A stretch of DNA of 54,139 nt from Spirochaetales bacterium (lineage in GTDB: Bacteria > Spirochaetota > Spirochaetia > PWKH01), in NCBI GenBank assembly GCA_021736605.1, contig JAIPFQ010000002.1, positions 1 through 54,139 of the forward strand, read 5' to 3'. A program made the translations under genes and the position numbers. The notes beneath the pieces were generated by a model. It was not told the origin of the DNA. It searched no databases and saw only the letters and a list, made by a program, of their open reading frames with translations. Of the stretch, positions 5,491-36,414 are shown one piece after another. Every line of letters starts with the position of its first letter. The stretch's first letter is position 1.

Positions 5491-7521
5491 ATGAATGAAA
5501 AGAAGAATCTTACTGAGTATAGACCCGTAAATCAAAAACATATTGAAATTCTCAAAAAGAATGGATGCAGCGCAGAAAACTGGGAAACTGTGTTCGTAAA
5601 AGAGGGCTTCCAGGCTGAACTTGTAAGTGCGGTTTCCTTTTTTTCTTCAGTCTACATAGGGCGCTTAGGGAAAACAATAATCAGCTCCTGCGGAAAAAAG
5701 AGAATAAGTTCCCTTTCGGGAGCTGCTCTTGAAAATGTATACATGGAAGATGATGTCTATATCCATGGATACGGCAGCACAATCCAGAATTATATCCTAG
5801 AGCGGGAAGTTATTCTGGAAAATGTTAAGGAAGTCTGTACTCCTGAACCATCAAGTTTCGGCAGCGGTGTAATTATAGAAGCCGTAAATGAGAAAGGCGG
5901 GCGTGATATTCCCATCTTTAACGAACTTAATGCTCATACAGCATACATGTTTGCCATGTACAGACATGATAAGAGACTTATTTCCGAAATGGAGCGTCTA
6001 GCTGAACTGGAAAAGGAAAAGAACTCCTCGGACATGGGAGTTATAAGTCATAATGCATCAATTTTTCATACAGGCAAGCTTCATTCTGTCTGTGTCGGGC
6101 CATATGCAGTAATTGAGGGAGCATCATCCTTCAGTAATGGAACGATCCTGAGTTCAGAAATTATGCCGGTTCGGATCGGATCTTCGGTGTTTGCGGAAGA
6201 CTTCATAATTCAGGAAGGAGTTTCCATAGGATTCGGGGTAAGCTTGATACGAGCGTTCATAGGACAGGGGGTGAAAATTGATACCCAGTTTTCAGCTATT
6301 GATTCTCTGGCATTTGCAGGCTCAGAATTGGCGCATGGTGAAATAGCCTCCGTATTTGCAGGACCCTTTTCCGTAAGCCATCACAAAGGGACCCTGCTGA
6401 TAGCAAGTTATATGTCATTTTTTAATGCAGGAAGCGGTACCAATCAAAGCAACCATATGTATAAACTCGGGCCGACAAGCCAGGGGGTACTGGAAAGGGG
6501 CTGCAAAACTGCATCAAATGTCTACCTGCGTTGGCCGAAGCGGATAGGTGCGGGGACAATTGTCATCGGTTCGCATATTGTTGCCTTTGATACTCATGAT
6601 TTTCCTTTCTCTTATCTAGTTGAGATGGATGAAAAGAGCGTTCTCATCCCCGGCAGAAATATTACATCAATCGGCATAGTCAGGGATACAAATAAATGGC
6701 TGCAGCGTGATCCTCGGGAAGGGGAGAACTTGCGTGATTATATCAATTTTTCTCTCTACAATCCCTTGAGTATGCAGTCAATGTTTCGCGGCCAGCAGCG
6801 TCTGCAGGCAATAAAAATGCATCGCGATGTGGATCAGTATCCCATTACTGGATTTTATTTACGTCAGAAGGATATTCAGAAGGGTGTAGATCTCTATGAA
6901 CTGCTGCTTCGGGCTTACCTGGGCAGAATTGTTGTCAGAAAATTGGAAATGCTTCTGGATGAGCCTAAGAAAAGAGGTGTCAGATTATCATTTGACGAAA
7001 TTATTACCGGACTAATTCCTAAGGAAGAGTATAATTCAAGTGAAAACTGGGCAGATTTATCAGGACTGCTGATTCCTGAGAATCAGTTGAATGATTTGAT
7101 TGACCAGATAAAATCCAATACGTATGCATCATTTGAACACATTAATACTGCACTTCATAAGATTTTTCTCGGTTACGAAGATTATGAATACAGCTGGGTC
7201 TTGAATCACCTGCAGAAAAAGAAACACAAGAGTACCGCAGAATTTTCAGAGGAAGATCTCTTTGTTGTGCTGAGACAGTGGATAGAGGCAGAAAAACGGC
7301 TTTACAGATTACGAAGAACTGATGCATACAAGGAATACAGTGAACTGGCAAAAATCAGTTATGGTATAGATGGAAATGATGATGTTCGAAATGATGATTT
7401 CGAGGCAATACATGGCAAATTTGACGGCAATAAAGCTATAGTACTGCTTGATAAAGATATACAGAATAAAGAAAAAACATTTGAAAAAATGATCGAATTA
7501 CTGGAGAATCTTGAGGAATAG
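5491..7521 (+). CDS. DUF4954-like protein with a left-handed beta-helix region; function unknown
   Basis: The 676-aa ORF has an N-terminus (LTEYRPVNQKHIEILKKNGCSAENWETVFV) and a hexapeptide-repeat-like centre that match my memory of the DUF4954 family. This was not verified by search. Confidence 0.5.
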   Translation: MNEKKNLTEYRPVNQKHIEILKKNGCSAENWETVFVKEGFQAELVSAVSFFSSVYIGRLGKTIISSCGKKRISSLSGAALENVYMEDDVYIHGYGSTIQNYILEREVILENVKEVCTPEPSSFGSGVIIEAVNEKGGRDIPIFNELNAHTAYMFAMYRHDKRLISEMERLAELEKEKNSSDMGVISHNASIFHTGKLHSVCVGPYAVIEGASSFSNGTILSSEIMPVRIGSSVFAEDFIIQEGVSIGFGVSLIRAFIGQGVKIDTQFSAIDSLAFAGSELAHGEIASVFAGPFSVSHHKGTLLIASYMSFFNAGSGTNQSNHMYKLGPTSQGVLERGCKTASNVYLRWPKRIGAGTIVIGSHIVAFDTHDFPFSYLVEMDEKSVLIPGRNITSIGIVRDTNKWLQRDPREGENLRDYINFSLYNPLSMQSMFRGQQRLQAIKMHRDVDQYPITGFYLRQKDIQKGVDLYELLLRAYLGRIVVRKLEMLLDEPKKRGVRLSFDEIITGLIPKEEYNSSENWADLSGLLIPENQLNDLIDQIKSNTYASFEHINTALHKIFLGYEDYEYSWVLNHLQKKKHKSTAEFSEEDLFVVLRQWIEAEKRLYRLRRTDAYKEYSELAKISYGIDGNDDVRNDDFEAIHGKFDGNKAIVLLDKDIQNKEKTFEKMIELLENLEE

Positions 7522-16044: not shown

Positions 16045-16083
16045 CAATAAATGAAAATAGCTAATGAAGTGAAAGGAGTTTTC

Positions 16084-17400
16084 ATGGGAACTTTGGATAT
16101 TGTAGAGAAAGTGGATAGTTATCTTAGCGAACATGGTCTGCACCCAGATAATGTTGATATGGACAAAATCTGCGATACCTTTCTCGCAGAAATGGAAAAG
16201 GGTTTACGTAGTGATTCTTCATCTTTAGCCATGCTCCCTACGTATATTCCTGTCAAAAAATATATTGCACCGGATGAGAATGTTATTGTGCTAGATGCAG
16301 GCGGTACAAATTTTCGATCCTGTATTGTTCGTTTTTCTCCTGATGGAGAGGCTAAGATCAGCAAGTTTACAAAACATACCATGCCCGGCAGCAGGGAAGA
16401 ATTGTCGGCAAAAGATTTTTTCTCCAAGATGGTGAACTTTTCCGAAGAAATACTCATGGACAGCAGTAATATCGGCTTCTGTTTCTCGTATCCGACTAAA
16501 ATTACACCTGAAAGAGATGGTATCCTTCTGCATTTTTCAAAGGAAATTAAAGCCTCTGAAGTGATCGGCAAGTTGATCGGGAAAAACTTTCTGCTTGAGG
16601 CTGAATCAAGATTTCCTGATGCTGAATGGAATTTGACAGTCCTGAACGATACCGTTGCAACACTGCTTTCCGGTAAAGCATCAGCAGAAGAACATCGCTA
16701 CAGCAGTTATATCGGATTTATTCTTGGTACTGGTACAAACACTTGTTACATAGAGGAAAACTCGAACATCACAAAGGCTGATCTTAAGGATGTTTCATAC
16801 ACACATCAAGTAGTGAATATAGAAAGCGGCGGGTTTGACATTAAGCTCAGCAAAATTGATAAAGCTTTTTACAAAACAACCGAGGCCTCCGGTACGTATC
16901 ATTTTGAAAAAATTGTTTCCGGCGCTTATCTCGGACCCTATATTCTCTTTGTACTGAAAAAAATTGCCGCAGATCTTCTGGATGAAAATACAGCAAAAAA
17001 TATAAAAAGTATCAAAACTCTTGATACTGTTGCCATGGATACATTTCTCCATGATCCTGAAGCAGATTCGCCCTTAGCTAATGCGTGTTCGGGGTCGGCA
17101 ACAGAGTATCGAAAAGCCTTGTACCATATTTGTGATAAGCTTATAGAAAGGGCGGCTAAACTTACCGCAGTAAATCTGTCAGCGGCGGTTATAAAAAGCG
17201 GTAAAGGTACTCACGAAAAGTTTCCGGTCTGTATAAATGCCGATGGTACAACTTTTTATAAAACACATAATCTTAAAAAATATACCTGCCGCTATATGAA
17301 TGAATTCCTGACGCAAAAACACAAGCGCTACTATGAGATGGTGCATATCGCGAATTCTCCGATTATTGGGGCAGCTATTGCCGGACTCCAGAACCAGTAA
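16084..17400 (+). CDS. Hexokinase-family sugar kinase
   Basis: The hexokinase phosphate-1 motif VLDAGGTNFRSCIV is present, and the later GTGTN element follows in the expected order. AAGGAG lies 6 nt upstream of ATG 16084. The track ORF starts at 16051. Confidence 0.8.
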   Translation: MGTLDIVEKVDSYLSEHGLHPDNVDMDKICDTFLAEMEKGLRSDSSSLAMLPTYIPVKKYIAPDENVIVLDAGGTNFRSCIVRFSPDGEAKISKFTKHTMPGSREELSAKDFFSKMVNFSEEILMDSSNIGFCFSYPTKITPERDGILLHFSKEIKASEVIGKLIGKNFLLEAESRFPDAEWNLTVLNDTVATLLSGKASAEEHRYSSYIGFILGTGTNTCYIEENSNITKADLKDVSYTHQVVNIESGGFDIKLSKIDKAFYKTTEASGTYHFEKIVSGAYLGPYILFVLKKIAADLLDENTAKNIKSIKTLDTVAMDTFLHDPEADSPLANACSGSATEYRKALYHICDKLIERAAKLTAVNLSAAVIKSGKGTHEKFPVCINADGTTFYKTHNLKKYTCRYMNEFLTQKHKRYYEMVHIANSPIIGAAIAGLQNQ

Positions 17401-26014: not shown

Positions 26015-26045
26015 AAAAAAATGGCGAGTCATGTTATGACTCGCC
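26015..26045 (-). terminator. Intrinsic terminator of the FMN-bind-like lipoprotein gene
   Basis: A 10-bp stem pairs ggcgagtcat with atgactcgcc (26023-26032 / 26036-26045). On the minus strand A-TTTTTTT follows. Confidence 0.75.
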
Positions 26046-26101: not shown

Positions 26102-27415
26102 CTATTCAGCTTCAGCTAACGCTTCAGCTGCTAATTCAACAAAATCATCAACATGAATTGAAACTCCGGAAATTGCATCTGTCTTTCCTTCTTCATTATA
26201 GCTTATAGCAGCAGGATCCTGAGTTTCCAGGAGGCGCTGCTCCATCAGGTTTGCTTGAACAGTCCAATCAGACTGTGCTCCTCCGTGTTCTACCATCCCG
26301 TATTCACCAGCTGCATCTACTTCTTTTTTATTTTCGCCGGCTTCATTAACAGCGTTCCAATTTACTGCAACAATAAAACCATTTGCTACAGCAATATCAA
26401 TAGTAGCTTTCCAACCTGATGACTCAGAAAAACTATCCGCTTCTGCATGATAGGTACCATCTTTATAAGGAGCTTTTCCATCTGGTCCGTCATTCAGTGC
26501 TTTTTCAACTAATTCAAAAAAGTCGTTTACGTGAATAGAAACACCTGCAATATCATCTGTGTGTCCTTCATCATCGGAGTATGTGACTGCAGCAGGGTCC
26601 TGGCTTTCAAGAAGAAATTTCTCAGCTTCCTGAGCCTGAACATGCCATTCAGCCTGTGCTTGGCTATTGGCAACCATACCGTAGTCTCCCTCTTCTGAAG
26701 CTGTTTTCTTGGATTCACCTGCTTCATTAACGGCATCCCAGTATGCAGCAACGATTCTGCCGCTTACCACAGTAAGGTCTACAGTAGATTTCCAGCCTGA
26801 TCCAGCAAATTCCATGGCTTGTGCAAAATAGCGGCCATCTTCATAGGGACCTAAACCTGAAGGCCCTTGAGCAAGAGCTTTTTCGGCGAGTTCAAAGAAT
26901 TCAACGACATGGATAGATACTCCTGCGATGTCATCTGTGTGTCCTTCATCATCAGAATAGGTGATTGCAGCAGGATCCTGATTTTCCAGCAGAAATTGCT
27001 CAGCTTTCTCTGCCTGTTCGTACCACTCAGCCTGAGCTCCTGCGATCGCGACCATATTGTACATTCCCATCTTATCGGTGGTCTTTTTATCAAGTCCGCC
27101 TTCGACATTGGCACCATTCCATTCAGCAGAAACAATCTCTCCATCTTCTACTTCCAGGGTAACCATATATTTCCAGCCGGTCTTCTCAGAAAAACCATCT
27201 TCCTGAGCAAAATATATCCCGTCTTCATAATCCGCTGCTTCTACAGTTGGAGCTTCCTCAGTAACTTGTTCCTCAGCTTGGGGTTCAGGTTCTTCAACTG
27301 GTGCAGGGGCTGGTGCTTCTTCCTCTTTTGAGCATTGTGTAAAGAGCAGCATTAGCGCTGCTAGTGAAAAGATAAGAAGAACAGAAATTGAAATTCTTGC
27401 TATTCTTTTTGTCAT
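26102..27415 (-). CDS. Lipoprotein with three tandem ~126-aa FMN-bind-like modules (PplA-like candidate flavoprotein)
   Basis: A signal peptide ends in a lipobox-like LFTQC, followed by an acidic Pro-rich tether. Three modules follow, each starting DG.Y and ending TDDIAGVSIHV (twice) or TDAISGVSIHV (once). The DNA period is 378 bp. GGAGGGAG RBS. Confidence 0.6.
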   Translation of the reverse strand: MTKRIARISISVLLIFSLAALMLLFTQCSKEEEAPAPAPVEEPEPQAEEQVTEEAPTVEAADYEDGIYFAQEDGFSEKTGWKYMVTLEVEDGEIVSAEWNGANVEGGLDKKTTDKMGMYNMVAIAGAQAEWYEQAEKAEQFLLENQDPAAITYSDDEGHTDDIAGVSIHVVEFFELAEKALAQGPSGLGPYEDGRYFAQAMEFAGSGWKSTVDLTVVSGRIVAAYWDAVNEAGESKKTASEEGDYGMVANSQAQAEWHVQAQEAEKFLLESQDPAAVTYSDDEGHTDDIAGVSIHVNDFFELVEKALNDGPDGKAPYKDGTYHAEADSFSESSGWKATIDIAVANGFIVAVNWNAVNEAGENKKEVDAAGEYGMVEHGGAQSDWTVQANLMEQRLLETQDPAAISYNEEGKTDAISGVSIHVDDFVELAAEALAEAE

Positions 27416-27528
27416 AAACTTTCTCCCTCCAAAAAATTAATTCTGAGTAAAATTATAAGTAAAAAATCGTTTTAAAGCAATAGTTTTTGTTTTATTTATT
27501 ATGTAAATATGATATATTTACTATTGTA

Positions 27529-27906
27529 ATGAAAAATGTGAAGTTAGTTGATATTATAATTATATTTTTCACAATAATAACTATAATAATATTTTCCCTG
27601 TTTGTTTATTTGCAGCCGAATGATGCAAAACAGGTAGTTATTGAATCTTCTCATGAAACATGGATATATGATATAAACGATGACATGATAATTGATATAC
27701 CAGGTCCTCTAGGAGAGACAGAGGTCGTCATCCAGAACGGTTCAGTTCATGTTCATGATTCCCCCTGCAGGAATAAAATTTGTGTTTCCACTGGTGAGAT
27801 AAAAAGAACAGGTCAGTGGATTATCTGTCTGCCCAATGATGTGTTTGTAAGAATTGAGGGAAGGGAAGATACCAATGAAGATAAGGTAGATGATGTCGCA
27901 TTCTGA
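27529..27906 (+). CDS. NusG domain II-containing membrane-anchored protein
   Basis: An N-terminal TM helix is followed by ETEVVIQNGSVHVHDSPCRNKICVSTGEIKRTGQWIICLPNDVFVRIEG, typical of the NusG_II family. I prefer ATG 27529 to the track's TTG 27487. Confidence 0.7.
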   Translation: MKNVKLVDIIIIFFTIITIIIFSLFVYLQPNDAKQVVIESSHETWIYDINDDMIIDIPGPLGETEVVIQNGSVHVHDSPCRNKICVSTGEIKRTGQWIICLPNDVFVRIEGREDTNEDKVDDVAF

Positions 27907-29248
27907 AATATCCAAAGCCGACCAAAAAGCTGACAAAAAAAAAGAAAGCAGCATTTCACAGATGAGTGGGGAAGAAACTGCAGAAATTCATGGGAATTTC
28001 AGGCTTGAAACAATAGCTCTCCTTGGAGCATTGGCTCTTTTCCTCTCAACAGTTGAATATCTGGTTCCAAAGCCGGTCCCTTTTATGCGCTTAGGACTTG
28101 CGAATTTAGCTGTAATGATCGGGCTTTCCTTTCTGAATAACCGAGAATATCTACTTTTAGTCGTACTGAAGGTAGTTGGTCAAGGGCTGGTACATGGAAC
28201 AGTTTTTTCATATATTTTTCTATTCTCCCTGGCAGGAAGTACCGCCAGCGGTATCGTTATGCTTCTTTTATTCAGGCTGGTTAATAGCCATGTCTCATTT
28301 GTCGGCATTGGTATTGCTGGAGGGATAAGCAGTAATCTGATGCAGATACTGCTGGCGAGGCTTATTCTATTTGGTGAAAGCGCCTGGCTGATAGCTCCGC
28401 CATTTCTCATATTAGGATTCTTTTCTTCTCTGTTTCTCGGTATACTGGTACAGCGATTCTACAATCAGTCAGCCTGGATACAAAAACACATGTCTCAAGT
28501 CTCTAATGATAGAACACGAATACAAATACTGGAAAAACTGAAAATAGACAGATCGGCATTTTCATTGCGCAGCAGAAACAATCTGCCCATGCTTTTCGGG
28601 CTTTCCATGATTCCCGCCATTGTGTTTACTGATTCAGTTTGGATCCTTTCTGCACAGCTTCTATTTCTTCTTACTCTGCATAAAGTTCAAGGGCGTAAGA
28701 TAAAGTTACTGCCGAATATAATTATGATTGCTTCTATTTCTGTTCTGAATCTGCTTCAGGCGAACGGTAAAGTTCTCTATTACCTGGGTAATTTTCCGGT
28801 TACAGAAGGCGCGCTGGTCATTGGTTTAAGAAAGGCTTTTCTATTAATAGAGTTGATCTATTTATCACAATATATGGTTTCCAGAAATCCGGTTTTCCCT
28901 GGTAAAGCAGGTGCTTTGTTATCTCTGCAGTTTTCCTATTTCAATAAACTCATGAAAAACAGATTTTCTCTGCATCCAGGAAGATTTATGAAAGATGTCG
29001 ATGAAATGATAATCACCATGGAACAGGAACAACTGGAATTAGCGGAAGATGAAGCGGAAGGATCAGCATCAGGTCCTGACGACTTTTCAATCAGCCTGAG
29101 AAAGGGAAAGGGTAGGACTGAGTCCCGTAAAAACAATCTTATTCATGGTCCCGGTTTTCTGCGTGAAGGGGCAGCTGCGATATTTTTTTGGCTGCTTACC
29201 ATTTTACTACCGCTGCTCCTAAGCGAAATACCCAAAGTGTCACCATGA
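27890..29248 (+). CDS. Gx transporter (Hpre_diP_synt_I-type, ECF-S-like) fused to a second polytopic domain resembling EcfT/CbiQ
   Basis: The N-terminal half (LSTVEYLVPKPVPFMRLGLANLAVMIG ... GGISSNLMQILLARL) matches my memory of the Gx-transporter family. Calling the second half (residues ~230-350) T-component-like is a weaker inference. Confidence 0.55.
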   Translation: MMSHSEISKADQKADKKKESSISQMSGEETAEIHGNFRLETIALLGALALFLSTVEYLVPKPVPFMRLGLANLAVMIGLSFLNNREYLLLVVLKVVGQGLVHGTVFSYIFLFSLAGSTASGIVMLLLFRLVNSHVSFVGIGIAGGISSNLMQILLARLILFGESAWLIAPPFLILGFFSSLFLGILVQRFYNQSAWIQKHMSQVSNDRTRIQILEKLKIDRSAFSLRSRNNLPMLFGLSMIPAIVFTDSVWILSAQLLFLLTLHKVQGRKIKLLPNIIMIASISVLNLLQANGKVLYYLGNFPVTEGALVIGLRKAFLLIELIYLSQYMVSRNPVFPGKAGALLSLQFSYFNKLMKNRFSLHPGRFMKDVDEMIITMEQEQLELAEDEAEGSASGPDDFSISLRKGKGRTESRKNNLIHGPGFLREGAAAIFFWLLTILLPLLLSEIPKVSP

Positions 29249-29280
29249 AACTATACCGGAATAGTAGTTCATGGGAGAGT

Positions 29281-30420
29281 TTATAAGTGAATGCTGTAAT
29301 CATCATTATTTAAAGAATAGGTATAAGTCCCTTTATCAGCCGATTCTTCACCATCAGCAGCATCCTTATCAGCATCTTCTGCTTTAATACCCGAAGTAAG
29401 ATGGATCTCTTTTTTATTATCAACAAAAACTGCCTCAATACCGTCCATCTCCTCGATGAAAGAAATGCCTTGTTCCAAGCCCATGGAAAAAACTGCGGTG
29501 GATAAGGCATCAGCAATAAAGGATTCTTCACTTAAAATACTGACACTTTCGATGCTGTTTTCTACGGGATATCCGGTTTCAGTACTGAGGATATGATGAT
29601 ATCGGGAACCTTCCACTGTAAAATACCGCTCATAAGTACCGGAAGTTACAACAGCACCGCTTGTAAAACTGATTACCATCAGGTAATCACCTCGTGGTGA
29701 AGCAGGATCCTGGATTCCAATTCGCCAGGGATCATTTCCCGGTTTGGATCCTACAGTTTGAATATTTCCGCCAAGATTTATTATTGCACCTTCTATTCCT
29801 TCTGAAATGAAAAGATCCCGGAGTATATCGGCAGCGTAGCCCTTAGCGATACCTCCGACATCAATAACCATTCCTTCCCGTTCCAATCCAATTTCATGTG
29901 TTTTATTTTTCTCAAATATAATATCTTTATAGTCGACCAGAGGCAGCAGTTCATCTAATTCGTCATCAGAAGGTATCCGGGCATTGTCTGAGCCGATTCC
30001 CCATGCTTGTACGACTGGTCCAATTGTGGGATCAAATGAAGCTTCACTGATTTCAGAAATATGGACCGCCTCTTTTAGAACCGAAAAAGTATCATCTGAA
30101 ACAGGGACCAGTGAACTTCCTGCAGCCTTGTTAATACGGTTAATTTCACTTTCTTCAATATTCAAGCTCATTAATTCTTCAATCCTATCAAGCTTGTCAA
30201 AAGCCTGTTGAAAAATATGAGATTCTTCAGATATTCCTTCATCATATATACTGATTCTGCAAACAGTTCCCAGTGCTAAATGATTAGAATACACCGGTTT
30301 ATATGTAGTTTTATCAGTATTATGTGAAACATATTCACTTTTACAACCGTTCATATAAAGAAAACATGATAAAATTAGTAAAAATAGCCAGTTTATGTGT
30401 AGAAATCTTTTAAAATCCAT
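29281..30420 (-). CDS. apbE: FAD:protein FMN transferase (ApbE/Ftp) lipoprotein
   Basis: The lipobox is YMNGC. ApbE motifs are present: SEINRINKAAG, SFDPTIGPVVQAWGIG, VGGIAKGYAAD. Confidence 0.9.
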   Translation of the reverse strand: MDFKRFLHINWLFLLILSCFLYMNGCKSEYVSHNTDKTTYKPVYSNHLALGTVCRISIYDEGISEESHIFQQAFDKLDRIEELMSLNIEESEINRINKAAGSSLVPVSDDTFSVLKEAVHISEISEASFDPTIGPVVQAWGIGSDNARIPSDDELDELLPLVDYKDIIFEKNKTHEIGLEREGMVIDVGGIAKGYAADILRDLFISEGIEGAIINLGGNIQTVGSKPGNDPWRIGIQDPASPRGDYLMVISFTSGAVVTSGTYERYFTVEGSRYHHILSTETGYPVENSIESVSILSEESFIADALSTAVFSMGLEQGISFIEEMDGIEAVFVDNKKEIHLTSGIKAEDADKDAADGEESADKGTYTYSLNNDDYSIHL

Positions 30421-30503
30421 GGTTAAATTATGATGAAAAAAGTAAGACTTGACAACTGTCGATTTGGCTATTAGTTTGTATTTGCAGATAAAATTGGGAG
30501 TAT

Positions 30504-32396
30504 ATGATGAATAAAATTAAAATTGTGATTCTCGGCGGCGGGTATGCCGGTGTACATGCAGGAAAAAAGCTGCATAAGAAATTCAAGAAGCTGAAAGACC
30601 GTGTAGAAGTGACCCTTATTGACAAAAAACCATATCATACCTTGATGACGGAACTGCATGAAGTTGCAGGAGGTAGAGTCGGCGAGGAATCTGTAAAAAT
30701 ATCATTTGACAGAATTTTTTCAGGCAAAATGGTCAATGTTGTACAAGACGAAATTAATGATATTGATTTTAATAATCAGAAACTTGTTTCGTCGGATAAC
30801 TCCTATGAATATGATTATCTCCTCATATCTACAGGGGCAGAAGCTTCTGATTTTGGTATTCCGGGAATTAAAGAGCACTCTTTTCCCCTCTGGGGGCTTG
30901 AAGAGGCTTTAGCCATTCGAGAGCATATAGAAGATGTTGTTCGCAGAGCTGCAGTTGAAAAGGATGATCAGAAAAGAAAAGAAATGCTGACCTTTGTAGT
31001 TGCAGGTGCCGGTTTTACTGGTATAGAAATGATGGGAGAGTTAGTAGAATGGCTTCCAGTACTCTGTAAAAAACATCATATTGATATAGATGAGGTTTCC
31101 CTGAAGACTGTTGAGGGCTTAGGTAAGATATTGAATACCTGGCCTGAAAAGCCGAGGAAAAAAGTAGAGAAATTTCTCAAAAGGAAAGGTGTGGATCTGC
31201 ATCTGAATTCTTTCATTACTAAAGCTGAAAAAGATAGACTGGAATTGAAAGATGGAACGGTTATAAAAACAGATACCATTATTTGGACCTGCGGAATAAA
31301 GGGATCTTCTTTCGGTGAAACTCTTGACCTTGAAGAAGGGAAAATGGCCAGAAAGAAAGTTGACGCATACATGAAAAGTCCCAATTATGATAATGTGTAT
31401 CTGGCTGGAGACCAAGTGTGGTTTCTGGAAGAAGAAAGACCGCTTCCGCAGATTGTTGAAGCTGCCGAACAGACGGCTTCAGTTGCTGTTGATGGAATCA
31501 CTTTTAAAGCAAAGGGCCAGTTAGGCTATGATGTAAAGGAACCCAAACCCTTCTCATCAAATTTTCATGGTTATATGGTCTCGATTGGCGGTAAATATGG
31601 TGTATCCTACACCATGGGTTTCTCTCTATCTGGATTTTTCGCTTTGGCGCTGAAGCATCTTATCAACATCTATTACCAGCATACTGTTTGCGGGGTAAAC
31701 GGCTGGTGGAGGTATATTCAGCACGAAATTTTGAATATTAAAAATAAACGCTCATTGATCGGCGGCCTTGCTTCATTTAAAGTGCAGTCCTACTGGACAA
31801 CCTTTCTTCGCATGTTCCTTGGAGCAATGTGGTTTATTGAAGGAATAAAAAAGGTCCTTGAAGGCTGGCTGGCTGATAAAACTGGCGGATACGTCTACTG
31901 GGGAAGCAGCGCAGAAGGGGCAGACGCTACAGCATCAGCATCTGCTGCTGAATGGGGAGAAGGTGCGGCTGAGACAGCTGAAGCAGCAGGTGAGGCTGTT
32001 CAGCAGTTTGCACCGCCCCTGCTTGATAATCCGACTCTGTTATTTCAGTGGGTAAATGAGACTTTTGTTGCACAGGCCCCCTATTTCTTCCAGGTTATGA
32101 TTGTTGTAGGGGAGATCCTTCTTGGACTCTGCTTCCTTGGAGGCTTATTCACATTTCCTGCGGCAGTTGCCTCTATCGGACTCTCCGTTATGCTTCTTAT
32201 TGGAGCGATGGCAGGACAGGAAATTCTGTGGTATATCGCCGTTTCAATTGTGATGCTCGGCGGAGCTGGGCGAGCTTTCGGATTAGATTACTGGGTTATG
32301 CCTTGGATTAAGAAAATTTGGAACAGTACACGACTTGCACATAAGACTTACCTGTATCTTGATGAGCCTGTAATGAAGTGGAAGAAAAGAAAGTAA
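30504..32396 (+). CDS. ndh: Type II NADH dehydrogenase (NDH-2) fused to a C-terminal DoxX-like membrane domain
   Basis: Two dinucleotide folds are present (ILGGGYAGV, VAGAGFTGIE). After ~residue 400 there are TM helices split by an Ala/Glu-rich linker, ending ...GEILLGLCFLGGLFTFPAA...MLGGAGRAFGLDYWV (DoxX-like). Confidence 0.8.
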   Translation: MMNKIKIVILGGGYAGVHAGKKLHKKFKKLKDRVEVTLIDKKPYHTLMTELHEVAGGRVGEESVKISFDRIFSGKMVNVVQDEINDIDFNNQKLVSSDNSYEYDYLLISTGAEASDFGIPGIKEHSFPLWGLEEALAIREHIEDVVRRAAVEKDDQKRKEMLTFVVAGAGFTGIEMMGELVEWLPVLCKKHHIDIDEVSLKTVEGLGKILNTWPEKPRKKVEKFLKRKGVDLHLNSFITKAEKDRLELKDGTVIKTDTIIWTCGIKGSSFGETLDLEEGKMARKKVDAYMKSPNYDNVYLAGDQVWFLEEERPLPQIVEAAEQTASVAVDGITFKAKGQLGYDVKEPKPFSSNFHGYMVSIGGKYGVSYTMGFSLSGFFALALKHLINIYYQHTVCGVNGWWRYIQHEILNIKNKRSLIGGLASFKVQSYWTTFLRMFLGAMWFIEGIKKVLEGWLADKTGGYVYWGSSAEGADATASASAAEWGEGAAETAEAAGEAVQQFAPPLLDNPTLLFQWVNETFVAQAPYFFQVMIVVGEILLGLCFLGGLFTFPAAVASIGLSVMLLIGAMAGQEILWYIAVSIVMLGGAGRAFGLDYWVMPWIKKIWNSTRLAHKTYLYLDEPVMKWKKRK

Positions 32397-32426
32397 TAAA
32401 GTAGTAAGTGAAAGGAAACTGAATAC

Positions 32427-33419
32427 GTGATACATGATTTTTGGAAGGATGCGCCTGAAATTGAAAAAGAACTTGAACGAGTGGATTATGAAATATATCG
32501 TTCAGTTTCCTCGGCTCATGGTTTCATTAAAGAGCATATACAGGACTTAGTAACACAGCAGGGCAAAAAATTACGCCCTGCCTGTGTACTCCTCTCTTAC
32601 CAGATCATTTCAGATAAACTTCCTAACGATACGATATATCGATTAGCAGCAGGTGTTGAATTAATCCACCTAGCTTCTTTAATACATGATGATATTATTG
32701 ATGATGCAGACCGCAGAAGGGGCAAACCTGCGCTTCATGCAAAAATAGGGAATAAAAAAGCGATTGTAGCAGGTGATTTTTTACTTGCAAAAGCCTTTTC
32801 ACTCCTTTCTCGTGAAGAAGTGGATTCATTGAATCCATCAGTAGTCTCCCGCAGAATTACACGACTTTGTGAAAGTGAGATTGACCAGGATAGTGAAATT
32901 GGTGATTATTCCATTTCAAAATCCCATTATCTCAGAAGAATAGCTGGCAAAACCGCATCCCTGTTTTCCCTCAGCTGCTATGTTGGAGCACAGGCCGGGG
33001 AGGCCAGCAGAACCACAGTCATGCAGCTTTCACGACTGGGGTATAATATAGGAATGGCATTTCAGATAAGGGATGATATCCTTGATTACTCAGGTGACAG
33101 TCGAAATCTTGGAAAAGAAATAGGTAAAGATCTGGAATCTGGAATTGCTACATTACCCCTTATCTTAGCTCTTGATAATGAGAAACGTAAAAAAATGGAT
33201 TCTCTGCATGCTCATTTACGTACTTTTACGCAGAGCAATCAAGATTCTAAGAAAAAAATCATAAAGCTTATACAAGACCTTAAGGGAGTTGAAAATTCCC
33301 AGAAAATGGTTGATGACTATTTACGCCTTGCAAAAAGGGATCTGAAAAAACTTACCCCCAATTCCGCCAATAAAACGTTTCAATGGATGCTGAATGCTCT
33401 GCTGGAAAGCAGCTTGTAG
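32427..33419 (+). CDS. Long-chain polyprenyl diphosphate synthase (hepta/octaprenyl type)
   Basis: The first Asp-rich motif is LIHDDIIDDADRRRGKP and the second is FQIRDDILDY. The start codon is GTG. Confidence 0.85.
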   Translation: MIHDFWKDAPEIEKELERVDYEIYRSVSSAHGFIKEHIQDLVTQQGKKLRPACVLLSYQIISDKLPNDTIYRLAAGVELIHLASLIHDDIIDDADRRRGKPALHAKIGNKKAIVAGDFLLAKAFSLLSREEVDSLNPSVVSRRITRLCESEIDQDSEIGDYSISKSHYLRRIAGKTASLFSLSCYVGAQAGEASRTTVMQLSRLGYNIGMAFQIRDDILDYSGDSRNLGKEIGKDLESGIATLPLILALDNEKRKKMDSLHAHLRTFTQSNQDSKKKIIKLIQDLKGVENSQKMVDDYLRLAKRDLKKLTPNSANKTFQWMLNALLESSL

Positions 33420-33576
33420 CTATCAGGATCTGCATTTAGCTATCAGGAGCTGGATTGAATTTGGTGAGAAGATGCTAAGCACCTCTGTAACCTTCAAATG
33501 ATTTTACTGTTTACTAATTAAAGTTTGAAAATTTTCTGTCTCAATACTGCATTACCAATCACAAAAGAGGATATTT

Positions 33577-34743
33577 ATGTTCAGGAAAAGTATTTTACTG
33601 CTCTTTGCATTCAGCACATTAACTGGGTTCAGCATGCACTCACTATCTGCTCTTGATTCGTTTTCTTCAAATCCGGGTGAGGCTAGAATCATGGGTTTGT
33701 CAGGAGCTTATACCGCTGTTACCGATGACAGTAACGCTTTATTCTACAATCCTGCCGGTTTGTCTGAGCTTCAGAATGGTAACACAAAGGTTCAGCTGGA
33801 CTATGAGGATGCAGTAACCATGAATGGACTGGAAATTGATAATATGGATCATTTTTTTTCAAAGCCCTTGATAACTCCAAAAATTCTGTATACAGCACCC
33901 AATTGGGGCATATCTCTCTATTCAGGATATCAGTCAGATATTATTGATGCAGAAGGAAGTTCTTCTGATGAAGTGGTTTTGGATATTACTAAAAAAAATG
34001 TTTTGGAAGCCGGTTTCAGCTTTGATTTAGGTTCCATTTCTCTCGGTTTGGGTTTTCGGTCTTCAAAAGAACTTAACGCAGAATCAATAACATTAGAAAA
34101 AAATATTTCAACGGAAAATCTCTATATTGAACTGTTCCAGAATGTTCTTCTAGGTGATTATTCTTCCCAGAACGGTGAAAACGAAGAACTGATGGTAAGC
34201 GGCGGATTTTTAGCTGATTTAGGGAGTTTTTCTGTGGGGGTGTATAATGACTCCTTAATTGATCTCATTTCTCTGACAAATGAGGGAGATATTCTTAATT
34301 CCTTCTTTAAAGACATAAATATTGGAGCTGCTTTTCGTACAAGAAACTATGATGATTACGGCAACATTAAACTGCTGAGATTCCTTTGGGCTCTTGATAT
34401 TGACAATGCAGCCTTGGGAATTTTTGAAGAAAATGAGGATCCGGACAAGGATCAGAGAAAACTGCAGATTGGGTTTGAAACAGGACTCTATTTTTCAGAA
34501 AAGGCTAATTTAGCAATTCGTGCAGGATACAGTGAACCGCTTCCAGATTACAGGGACCTGCTTTTTGGTTTGAATATCAATGAGGGAACTTTCTCCTTCG
34601 GACTCGGGCTGAACTTATTATTTACAACTTTTGATGTAGGAGTACAGGTTCCTCCAGATGCTTTTGTCCTGCTTATTGACCCTGAATATGACTACACCGG
34701 TGAACCCGTACAAGGAAGAATCACCATGGGAGTTTCTTTTTAA
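33577..34743 (+). CDS. Putative outer-membrane beta-barrel protein (UPF0164/FadL-like or PorV-like)
   Basis: A signal peptide is followed by ARIMGLSGAYTAVTDDSNALFYNPAGLSEL, alternating beta-strand-like segments and a C-terminal ...GVSF. AAGAGGA RBS. Confidence 0.5.
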   Translation: MFRKSILLLFAFSTLTGFSMHSLSALDSFSSNPGEARIMGLSGAYTAVTDDSNALFYNPAGLSELQNGNTKVQLDYEDAVTMNGLEIDNMDHFFSKPLITPKILYTAPNWGISLYSGYQSDIIDAEGSSSDEVVLDITKKNVLEAGFSFDLGSISLGLGFRSSKELNAESITLEKNISTENLYIELFQNVLLGDYSSQNGENEELMVSGGFLADLGSFSVGVYNDSLIDLISLTNEGDILNSFFKDINIGAAFRTRNYDDYGNIKLLRFLWALDIDNAALGIFEENEDPDKDQRKLQIGFETGLYFSEKANLAIRAGYSEPLPDYRDLLFGLNINEGTFSFGLGLNLLFTTFDVGVQVPPDAFVLLIDPEYDYTGEPVQGRITMGVSF

Positions 34744-34934: not shown

Positions 34935-36149
34935 TTATTCCGGCAAGCCGTAAGTTTCATAGACATAATCTATGTCTTTGTCTCCCCGCCCTGAAAGATT
35001 TACAAGTATAGTTTTATCCTTCGGCAGTTTCTGGGCCAGTTTGATTGCAAAAGAAATTGCATGAGCTGATTCAAGGGCAGGAATTATTCCTTCAGTTCTC
35101 GATAATTCATAAAAAGCTGTAATGGCTTCAACATCGTTGGCTGTTGTATATTTAACACGCTTGATATCCTTCAAGTAACTGTGCTGAGGCCCTACTCCGG
35201 GATAGTCAAGTCCGCTGGCGACTGAGTATACTGGAAGTGGTTCTCCATCATCATCTTGGAGGAGATAGCAGGAGAACCCGTGGATTTTTCCCGGTTTCCC
35301 ATAAGTAAGTGTTGCAGCATGCTCTCCGGATTTAAAACTTTTTCCAGCAGGTTCGACACCATACATTTGTACCTCTGTGTCATTTAAGAATTCAGTAAAA
35401 AGCCCGATTGCATTTGAACCGCCGCCGACACAGGCGATCAGGTTGTCAGGAAGAGTATTTGTTAAGTCTTTGAACTGCTGTTTAGCCTCCTTTCCGACAA
35501 TGGACTGAAAATCTCTGACCATCATAGGAAAGGGATGCGGACCCACTACTGATCCAATTGCATAAAGCTGTGTATTAGGATCTTTCATGTAAGCTTCAAA
35601 TGCTGCGTCCACAGCATCTTTGAGCGTTTTTGTTCCACGGTCTACAGGAATTACGGTAGCACCTAATATTTTCATGCGAATGACATTGGGATGTTCCTTA
35701 ACGATATCTATCTCACCCATGTAAATATCGCACTCCAGTCCAACGAGGGCCGCTGCAGTAGCAAGGGCTACTCCATGCTGCCCGGCTCCTGTTTCAGCGA
35801 TAATTTTCTTTTTTCCCATTTTTTTTGCTAAAAGAGCTTCACCAATACAGTGATTGATTTTGTGAGCTCCAGTATGGTTGAGATCTTCTCTTTTGAAATA
35901 GATTTGTGCACCTCCAAGTTTATCTGAAAGGTGTTTTGCATAATAAATTGGTGAAGGTCTTCCAACATAATGTGTATAGTAGTAGGCTAGTTCAGTTGTA
36001 AATGCTTCATCCTTGCGTATATCAGCGTATGCATCTCGGATCTCATCAATAATGGTCTGCATTTGCGGAGGAAGATAACTTCCGCCGTAGTCTCCAAAAA
36101 AACCTTGTTCATTAGGTAAATTGCTTAAATTATCCTTTACTGTTTTCAT
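34935..36149 (-). CDS. trpB: Tryptophan synthase beta chain
   Basis: The PLP-Lys motif [10 protein letters not shown] is present, with GAGQHG and [13 protein letters not shown] 36149 is preceded by GAGGAG. No trpA is adjacent. Confidence 0.9.
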
Positions 36150-36414
36150 TATCAATCTCCTCAATTAAATGTTTGCAAATAGAATCCGGCTGTTTCAGTA
36201 TTTTAGATCCCCGGGTAATTTTACAGAGACTTATTCCCAAGTCGTGCGCTATCTCTCTTTGGGGAACCTTATGTTTCAAGTCTTTCATAAGGCGCCAACG
36301 CAGTGCAAAATCATATTTTTCTTTCATGGTAAACAACTCTTCAAACAGTTTCTGCATTTGTTCGTAACTATTGACGGATGCAAAAATCTGAATAACTTCT
36401 TCAATGTCTTTCAT
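36130..36414 (-). CDS. TrpR-related (YerC/YecD-like) small HTH protein
   Basis: The 94-aa protein reads ...[38 protein letters not shown]. It overlaps the trpB start by 20 nt. AGAGGG RBS. Confidence 0.7.

Follow-up and report, generated by a model that had tools for sequence, protein, structure and literature searches.

Positions 26102-33419 of a spirochaete contig probably encode a Sphaerochaetaceae-like version of the flavin-based extracellular electron transfer system (FLEET, or EET) of Listeria. The contig (JAIPFQ010000002.1, assembly GCA_021736605.1) comes from a Spirochaetales bacterium; we analysed positions 1 to 54,139 of its forward strand, a stretch of 54,139 nucleotides that we refer to as the window. 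Predicted counterparts of Ndh2, PplA, FmnB, DmkB, EetA, and EetB are all encoded in this region, which amounts to a near-complete Listeria parts list. This type of system is known, and the literature already records its parts and its occurrence in Spirochaetota; the window supplies a further, uncharacterised example. What is new here is local: a lipoprotein with three domains for flavin mononucleotide (FMN) that is invisible to Pfam and bears a derived motif, an unannotated family of membrane partners for EetB, and a quinone prenyltransferase gene that is either lost or has moved outside the 54-kb window.

Gene content of the cluster

An earlier note on this DNA had grouped 7 contiguous genes into a redox cluster that resembled, but did not match, the Listeria locus: a triple FMN-bind-like lipoprotein, a NusG_II membrane protein, a Gx-transporter fusion, an ApbE lipoprotein, an NDH-2 extended by a C-terminal membrane domain, a polyprenyl synthase, and an outer-membrane barrel candidate. 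All 7 open reading frames (ORFs) are present in the ORF listing. Pfam and NCBIfam scans, which were used to assign the window proteins to families, bear out the NusG_II, Gx-transporter, ApbE, NDH-2, and synthase calls (Table 1). Six of the 7 genes are co-conserved, and the barrel gene is excluded. Gene content, family membership, motif conservation, and synteny are directly established.

The genes are closely packed on both strands. The EetA and EetB-fusion genes overlap by 17 bp; the ApbE gene converges on the EetB fusion and diverges from NDH-2, at a distance of 83 bp from the latter; and 30 bp separate NDH-2 from the polyprenyl synthase. Transcription units are read here from the sequence and a consensus terminator scan only. 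The G+C content is about 40% throughout, and a compositional island was not seen.

The NDH-2 shares 97% identity with a protein of the “Spirochaetia bacterium” metagenome-assembled genome (MAG) GCA_021736505.1, where the gene order is the same, and its full-length identity to proteins of Sphaerochaeta, Sphaerochaetaceae, and Pleomorphochaeta is 60-69%. These closest relatives, Sphaerochaeta and Sphaerochaetaceae, are diderm spirochaetes, and the host is accordingly regarded as diderm.

Table 1. Features of the cluster and its borders, in window coordinates.
Feature	Positions	Strand	Evidence or remark
Terminator-like hairpin	26023..26045	-	10-bp stem, 6 G-C pairs, T-run; just downstream of lipoprotein gene; consensus scan only
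PplA-like lipoprotein, three FMN-bind1-type domains	26102..27415	-	NCBIfam PplA 4.2e-26; PDB 2kzx 9e-37, 3o6u 0.003
Predicted flavinylation motif 3, DAISGVS, aa 413-419	26159..26179	-	Repeat 3 of lipoprotein
Predicted flavinylation motif 2, DDIAGVS, aa 287-293	26537..26557	-	Repeat 2 of lipoprotein
Predicted flavinylation motif 1, DDIAGVS, aa 161-167	26915..26935	-	Ser = predicted FMN acceptor
EetA homologue: one N-terminal transmembrane helix + NusG_II	27487..27906	+	Pfam NusG_II 9.1e-25
EetB domain (PF07456, ECF-S-like; predicted FAD-export substrate-binding module)	27890..28504	+	Pfam 2.9e-35
C-terminal membrane domain fused to EetB	28505..29248	+	Unannotated ~200-aa family; may be ECF-T/FmnA-like
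ApbE/FmnB-type FAD:protein FMN transferase, lipoprotein	29281..30420	-	Pfam ApbE 8.8e-92
NDH-2 catalytic part	30504..31703	+	Pyr_redox_2 8.2e-35; PDB 4nwz (C. thermarum NDH-2) 7e-55
NDH-2 C-terminal membrane domain	31704..32396	+	Weakly DoxD/DoxX-like: DoxD 4.8e-4, DoxX 0.013
Long-chain trans-polyprenyl diphosphate synthase (DmkB-like)	32427..33419	+	polyprenyl_synt 2.7e-64; HepT-like 6.3e-65
Secreted protein, possible PorV/FadL-like outer-membrane barrel	33577..34743	+	PorV_fam 1.1e-8, aa 34-87 only

Conservation of the cluster in relatives

Synteny was followed with NDH-2 as the anchor. Eighty species-representative loci and 3 more, 83 in total, were scanned by tblastn and by iterated hidden Markov models (HMMs); the iterated-HMM counts below refer to 84 sequences, that is, the window and the 83 loci. 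NDH-2 with its C-terminal domain is found in 83 of the 84, Clostridia included, and the polyprenyl synthase lies within the NDH-2 flanks in 75, just downstream of NDH-2 in each. ApbE is present in 34, FMN proteins in 31, and EetA and EetB in 27 each.

The full block, namely the lipoprotein, EetA, EetB, the C-terminal domain, ApbE, and the divergent NDH-2 and synthase, is found in at least 13 Sphaerochaetaceae-type genomes (L002, L006, L007, L008, L015, L019, L020, L021, L027, L031, L035, L040, and L069). Further copies are truncated by contig ends (L014, L018, L033, L062, L073, L077, and L081). Sphaerochaeta sensu stricto (S. pleomorpha L001, S. halotolerans L005, L009-L013, and L023) has a different layout: the lipoprotein gene is divergent from the NDH-2-synthase pair, and EetA, EetB, and ApbE are missing at that site, being either elsewhere or absent. 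Clostridial loci anchored on a homologous NDH-2 carry FMN_bind, EetA, and EetB. The synteny check that the earlier note had called for thus upholds 6 of its genes as a co-conserved cluster, and the barrel gene drops out, being limited to 4 of the 84 sequences.

UbiA, UbiD, and UbiX sit beside the cluster in 5 loci (L001, L027, L049, L056, and L061). In 2 of these loci, from S. pleomorpha (L001 4374-8196) and a Sphaerochaeta MAG (L027 1911-5800), the genes run NMT1_2-UbiX-UbiA-UbiD directly upstream of the FMN lipoprotein. The Ubi order is that of the Clostridia UBA701 EET cluster in the table of Meheust et al. 2021, and this shared order suggests that the locus as a whole was exchanged laterally between Clostridia and Sphaerochaetaceae. 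The arrangement also suggests a quinone made by UbiA, UbiD, and UbiX rather than by DmkA.

A lipoprotein with three FMN domains and a derived motif

The PplA-like lipoprotein consists of 437 amino acids (aa). Its signal peptide, with Cys28, is followed by a tether rich in Ala, Pro, and Glu and by 3 repeats of about 125 aa each that are 53-64% identical. A direct Pfam assignment of the repeats failed: FMN_bind (PF04205; cutoff 22 bits) matches none of the 3, even at E<=10. It was replaced by a bridge through the PDB entry 2kzx and the PplA model. The sequence of 2kzx itself passes the Pfam FMN_bind threshold (31.8 bits), and 3O6U, also matched, is the literature’s type example of a flavinylated “FMN-bind1” domain; by this transitive homology, the repeats belong to the FMN-binding superfamily. 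The description as a triple FMN-bind-like lipoprotein therefore holds for the 3 repeats and their homology to FMN-binding domains, but not at the level of Pfam FMN_bind, which misses them all. With 91.8 bits against the PplA equivalog model (NCBIfam NF041941; cutoff 325), the protein is homologous to PplA but not its equivalog.

The canonical motif for flavinylation by ApbE is D-x-x-[S/T]-G-A-[S/T]. The lipoprotein supplies the extracytosolic FMN domains of the Listeria parts list with this motif present thrice, each time as the variant D-x-I-[AS]-G-V-S. Across 23 orthologues with 2-5 repeats each, the consensus is [AS]-G-V-[ST], and the acceptor Ser or Thr is kept in every repeat. On the strength of this alignment, D-x-I-[AS]-G-V-[ST] is a predicted derived flavinylation motif that Pfam FMN_bind misses; PF04205 probably fails because the motif, the most conserved stretch, has diverged. 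In 3 loci (L038, L072, and L082), the neighbours of a homologous NDH-2 carry canonical TGAT motifs and pass PF04205.

Most lipoprotein orthologues have a clear lipobox Cys. Two of them (L031 5074-7044 and L069 3125-4984) have 5 and 4 FMN repeats, respectively, and signal peptides without a lipobox cysteine; repeat number and anchoring thus vary within the family. A 154-aa low-complexity ORF lies antisense inside the lipoprotein gene of the window (26867-27331, plus strand); it is unsupported and almost certainly spurious.

EetA, EetB, and a membrane partner of EetB

The EetB family was defined by Rivera-Lugo et al. 2023 (PMC9973259), who identify eetB homologues by PF07456 and describe EetB as the FAD-binding subunit, akin to the S component of energy-coupling factor (ECF) transporters, that is needed in the export of flavin adenine dinucleotide (FAD) for PplA flavinylation. 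Their Data Set S1 labels NusG_II (PF07009) as EetA and PF07456 as EetB; eetA and eetB are colocalised in 3,328 genomes, and eetB and apbE in 2,169 (PMC9973259). By these labels, the NusG_II/PF07456 pair of the window is EetA/EetB. The earlier note saw no recognisable EetA or EetB and placed a NusG_II/Gx-transporter pair in their stead; this was wrong, since that pair is EetA and EetB.

The EetA product is a membrane-anchored NusG_II protein encoded beside EetB, with its transmembrane helix at aa 23-41. The listed TTG start at 27487 probably lies too far upstream, and translation more likely begins at the ATG at 27529, which fits the 125-aa EetA product of the 97%-identical relative (the L002 orthologue). 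In the 452-aa EetB protein, the PF07456 (Hpre_diP_synt_I) match spans aa 45-189 only, which makes the product of 27890-29248 a fusion. EetB is identified by family and ECF-S-like fold, and its FAD binding is predicted only. An AlphaFold2 (AF2) model of the fusion, built with a 42-sequence alignment, has a pLDDT of 82 and a pTM of 0.79. In a Foldseek search of the PDB, its N-terminal half matched the ECF-S proteins RibU (3p5n, 5kbw, and 5kc4) and FolT (4huq_S) with a probability of 1.0 and a target TM-score of 0.65-0.75. The same fusion architecture recurs in 64 clusters of homologues, 290-470 aa long, that come for the most part from spirochaete MAGs and Treponema.

The C-terminal domain is part of a family that counts 844 representative clusters (E<=1e-3) and has no Pfam model. 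Stand-alone proteins of about 200 aa make up most of the 150 clusters listed; in some others, the domain follows EetB in a fusion. At the level of loci, the domain is fused to EetB in the window, L002, L062, L073, and L077, and is otherwise encoded immediately downstream in the loci that have it; it is absent from the Clostridial loci scanned. We conclude from this distribution that it is a predicted dedicated membrane partner of EetB in clusters of the spirochaete type. Members of the family (window 28505-29248; proteins P0190-P0333) have about 4 helices and a conserved signature, G-K/R-x-hairpin-T-x-G-A-L-x-x-G-L...L-P-G...D.

This partner may resemble the T component of ECF transporters, but the evidence is divided. 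The overall top Foldseek match of the fusion is the ECF-T subunit of a folate transporter (7nnu_D; probability 1.0, E 0.04, TM-score 0.41), and a profile of the domain (A4) matches EcfT 5d3m_D over its N-terminal membrane part with an E-value of 0.0024. A deeper profile built on 106 stand-alone family members (A5) does not match EcfT at E<=10, and hhalign of A5 against the EcfT fragment gives a probability of 18% in the same register. Pfam CbiQ is matched by neither the EetB fusion, nor its 42 homologues, nor the other family members examined; phmmer with the EcfT fragment found nothing in the fetched loci, and a conserved Ala-Arg-Gly coupling motif is not evident in the alignment consensus of the domain. 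With the A4 and Foldseek signal lost in A5, an hhalign probability of 18%, and no CbiQ match, its identity as a bona fide ECF-T/FmnA is not established.

Flavin transferase, NADH dehydrogenase, and polyprenyl synthase

Among solved structures, the ApbE protein matches Listeria FmnB best (7esa, 1.8e-76), the one Listeria protein compared directly; the match to Treponema pallidum Ftp (4ifu) is weaker, at 2.7e-57. The lipobox Cys is conserved in orthologues, and the protein is thus, like FmnB, a predicted extracytosolic ApbE-type transferase.

The catalytic part of NDH-2 also matches the structures of Bacillus subtilis YjlD and Staphylococcus aureus NDH-2, and it has both GxGxxG motifs expected of the enzyme (GGGYAG, aa 11; GAGFTG, aa 168). 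By hydropathy, its C-terminal domain has at least 3 hydrophobic helices, and it is highly conserved among orthologues. Within this domain lies a low-complexity insert rich in Ala, Glu, and Ser (aa ~468-500, ~31905-32000) that ranges from 0 to about 60 residues across orthologues. In addition, a P-Q-I/T-V-E-A-A-E-Q stretch (aa 315-323; 31446-31472) is invariant among orthologues. Canonical NDH-2 enzymes carry the quinone-site motif AQxAxQ at this position, and the stretch may indicate that the quinone site of EET-type NDH-2 is distinct. The synthase next to it is a dedicated polyprenyl diphosphate synthase, as is DmkB.

Relation to described systems

The flavin-based EET locus of Listeria, reportedly described by Light and co-workers in 2018, is said to comprise Ndh2, PplA, FmnB, DmkA, DmkB, EetA, EetB, and FmnA. 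The window shares with it an NDH-2 with an extra membrane domain, an FMN lipoprotein, an ApbE lipoprotein, a polyprenyl synthase, EetA, and EetB, and the earlier view that the cluster does not match this locus falls with the recognition of EetA and EetB, which are present and not replaced. The differences lie in the diderm host, in the gene order and strand arrangement, and in DmkA, which is not in the window. Unlike Listeria PplA with its two domains, the lipoprotein has three FMN-bind1 domains and a derived A/S-G-V-S motif; and where Listeria has FmnA, a recognisable CbiQ-type protein was not found, and an unannotated membrane domain is fused to EetB instead.

Another point of comparison within the phylum is T. 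pallidum Ftp (TP0796), a homologous periplasmic ApbE lipoprotein. The window protein is closer to Listeria FmnB and sits in an NDH-2, quinone, and EetAB context, unlike Ftp, whose treponemal context we take to be Rnf-centred.

Meheust et al. 2021 (PMC8238504) gave an operational definition of EET: an NADH dehydrogenase of the K03885 type, with one or more transmembrane helices, that is encoded in a flavinylation-associated gene cluster and at most five genes away from ApbE or FMN_bind with a signal peptide or lipobox. The window NDH-2, with its transmembrane helices and 83 bp from the divergent ApbE lipoprotein gene, falls under this definition; its K03885 label is taken from the assignment of the equivalent gene in Sediminispirochaeta bajacaliforniensis. 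Supplementary file 1 of that study lists genes 99-104 of S. bajacaliforniensis NZ_KB899413.1 as “EET”: a 206-aa protein with 4 transmembrane helices, PF07456, a 93-aa ORF, and an ApbE lipoprotein, divergent from an NDH-2 (Pyr_redox_2+VKG_Carbox+DoxD) and polyprenyl_synt. The core and its orientation are the same as in the window, where PF07456 and the 4-helix protein are fused; an adjacent FMN lipoprotein, which Pfam-based screening would miss, further sets the window apart from the catalogued clusters. The same study gives the Clostridia UBA701 cluster as UbiX-UbiA-UbiD-ApbE-PplA, divergent from NDH-2-NusG_II-PF07456-polyprenyl_synt; in the window, Ubi genes are not found within 54 kb. The novelty claimed in the earlier note is thus removed, as the cluster fits a published definition and its core has already been tabulated in another spirochaete. 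Its statement that the system is uncharacterised in spirochaetes stands: experimental characterisation was not found in the literature, nor was anything specific that discusses or tests the cluster in Sphaerochaeta or other spirochaetes.

The lipoprotein resembles the “beads-on-a-string” 3xFMN-bind1 proteins (Huang et al. 2024, PMC11334425; Meheust 2021): three tandem domains of about 120 aa with short linkers, extracytosolic and associated with a transmembrane electron-transfer component. Unlike the surveyed proteins, it has Val for Ala, and Ala first in 2 of the 3 repeats, and the Pfam FMN_bind model of those surveys misses it. The EetB fusion, in turn, resembles the ECF-type FAD exporter EetB-FmnA-EcfA-EcfA' (Rivera-Lugo et al. 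2023) in its ECF-S fold and in the physical coupling to a second membrane module, but by sequence its partner domain is not a CbiQ-family ECF-T, and no ATPase genes lie near it.

Proposed electron path

In the route proposed by the earlier note, electrons pass from NADH to quinone and on to an extracytoplasmic lipoprotein that ApbE would flavinylate; homology and synteny support this route. We infer the biochemical steps, the direction of electron flow, and the acceptor by homology to the Listeria and lactic-acid-bacteria systems and from synteny. NDH-2 would oxidise cytoplasmic NADH and reduce a membrane quinone, whose isoprenoid tail would be made by the adjacent polyprenyl synthase; the fused DoxX-like domain presumably anchors NDH-2 and handles the quinone. 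EetB, as an ECF-S-like FAD-binding module, would export FAD to the periplasm together with its fused membrane domain and EetA. ApbE/FmnB would then attach FMN from FAD covalently to the Ser of D-x-I-[AS]-G-V-S in all 3 lipoprotein domains, and the resulting tri-flavin lipoprotein would take electrons from the quinol pool and pass them to a periplasmic or external acceptor. Such a pathway would give a fermentative cell an extra NADH sink. In lactic acid bacteria, which are fermentative, a homologous system raises the NAD+/NADH ratio and fermentation flux.

If active, this system could allow fermentative, cytochrome-poor spirochaetes to dump NADH electrons outside the cytoplasm. Such spirochaetes are often met in sediments, in anaerobic digesters, and in enrichments that reduce iron or grow on electrodes, and the lactic-acid-bacteria homologue dumps NADH electrons likewise, changing fermentation yields. 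The cluster also exposes blind spots of Pfam-based surveys, namely a spirochaete FMN lipoprotein unseen by PF04205 and a recurrent EetB membrane partner without a family; these do not overturn current understanding.

Competing explanations

Several observations weigh against a Listeria-type EET system. About 35 NDH-2-anchored loci, among them Oceanispirochaeta, Treponemataceae, and several Bacillota, have NDH-2 and the synthase only, without flavinylation genes within 10 kb, which shows that the NDH-2/synthase and flavinylation modules can exist apart. UbiA, UbiD, and UbiX are not encoded in the 54-kb window, and neither is another DmkA/MenA-type prenyltransferase; the earlier note was correct on this absence, which leaves quinone supply unproven, and the prenyltransferase is either lost or relocated outside the window. 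All 3 lipoprotein motifs have Val in place of the canonical Ala and Ser as acceptor; Ala-to-Val and Thr-to-Ser changes reduce flavinylation in model substrates without abolishing it. ECF ATPase genes do not occur near the cluster; those of Listeria are likewise encoded elsewhere in the genome. Finally, the originally described EET/FLEET has a monoderm (Gram-positive) envelope, which the spirochaete host does not share, and no outer-membrane electron route was found in this diderm host, where “extracellular” transfer would need one.

The separability of the modules invites an account in which two independent units happen to adjoin: a stand-alone NDH-2/synthase quinone reductase that feeds another quinol oxidase or reductase, and a periplasmic flavinylation unit of general use, with substrates such as Rnf or periplasmic reductases, like Ftp in Treponema. 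The counts point that way, with the NDH-2/synthase pair near-universal and each flavinylation part present in fewer than half of the sequences, as does Sphaerochaeta sensu stricto, where the lipoprotein stays beside NDH-2 and ApbE and EetAB are elsewhere or missing; in public genomes, moreover, eetB colocalises most commonly with Rnf and EET systems (PMC9973259). Yet the FMN lipoprotein adjoins NDH-2 even where ApbE and EetAB have moved away, NDH-2 accompanies FMN_bind, EetA, and EetB in Clostridia and in the experimentally studied Listeria locus as well, and the window has no Rnf or reductase genes; we regard this account as unlikely. We consider it quite improbable that the cluster, instead of an electron sink for energy or redox balance, encodes a periplasmic reductase of ferric iron or quinones that serves to acquire nutrients or to detoxify (for example, in iron assimilation or with exogenous quinones). 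According to Meheust et al. 2021 (PMC8238504), flavinylation clusters are repeatedly found in association with iron transporters and iron reduction, and a window without a prenyltransferase fits the use of exogenous quinones, as reported for L. plantarum; but iron transporter genes are neither in nor beside the cluster, and the dedicated polyprenyl synthase points to an isoprenoid quinone of endogenous origin.

The barrel candidate bears on a further idea, implied in the earlier note: a trans-envelope conduit in which the barrel carries electrons, or a flavin or quinone shuttle, across the outer membrane. Its gene lies on the same strand 157 bp after the synthase gene, a terminator-like site was not found between them in the consensus scan, and the product has a signal peptide, a C-terminus ending in GVSF, and a PorV/FadL-like N-terminal signature. 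That signature, a PorV_fam (PorV/PorQ-like) match of 54 aa, scores 35 bits where the family cutoff is 90. The AF2 model (pLDDT 38) puts most of the protein into long strands but is unusable for a fold search, and identity as an outer-membrane barrel is not confirmed. The protein has only 5 homologues in a database of 5.8e9 proteins, and its gene occurs only in the window, L002, L003, and L006, all close relatives, and in none of the other full-block genomes. Flanking genes with no relation to the system, Patatin and PALP, are likewise syntenic in L002 and L006, and L003, at 5.4 kb, is too short to reach them; the implied link to the neighbouring barrel is not supported. The barrel gene was rejected as a part of the system, and the conduit is very improbable.

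A Listeria-type EET system in the sense of the opening thus remains our preferred reading. Its extension is possible, if doubtful: in the diderm Sphaerochaetaceae, FLEET would be re-purposed as a purely periplasmic flavin wire with a self-contained FAD exporter. The lipoprotein of such a wire would be long-tethered, with 3 to 5 FMN groups and the lineage-specific A-G-V-S motif; the exporter might consist of EetB fused to or paired with a minimal, hitherto unrecognised ECF-T-like membrane family (about 840 representative clusters), without a canonical CbiQ subunit. If true, ECF-type exporters would gain a new partner family, and fermentative spirochaetes a periplasmic electron sink based on flavin.

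Neighbouring genes

Directly after the cluster lies a TrpB-like PALP enzyme followed by a small ORF (34935-36414, minus strand). Both are kept with the cluster in the closest relatives only, and the L002 orthologue of the small ORF is a Trp-repressor family protein. Two genes farther upstream encode proteins of note. The 676-aa product of 5491-7521 (plus strand) combines DUF4954 (1e-152) with DUF6819 (7e-36). ROK-type glucokinases are more usual in bacteria than hexokinase-family enzymes; the protein encoded at 16051-17400 (plus strand) matches the two-domain Pfam models Hexokinase_1 and Hexokinase_2.

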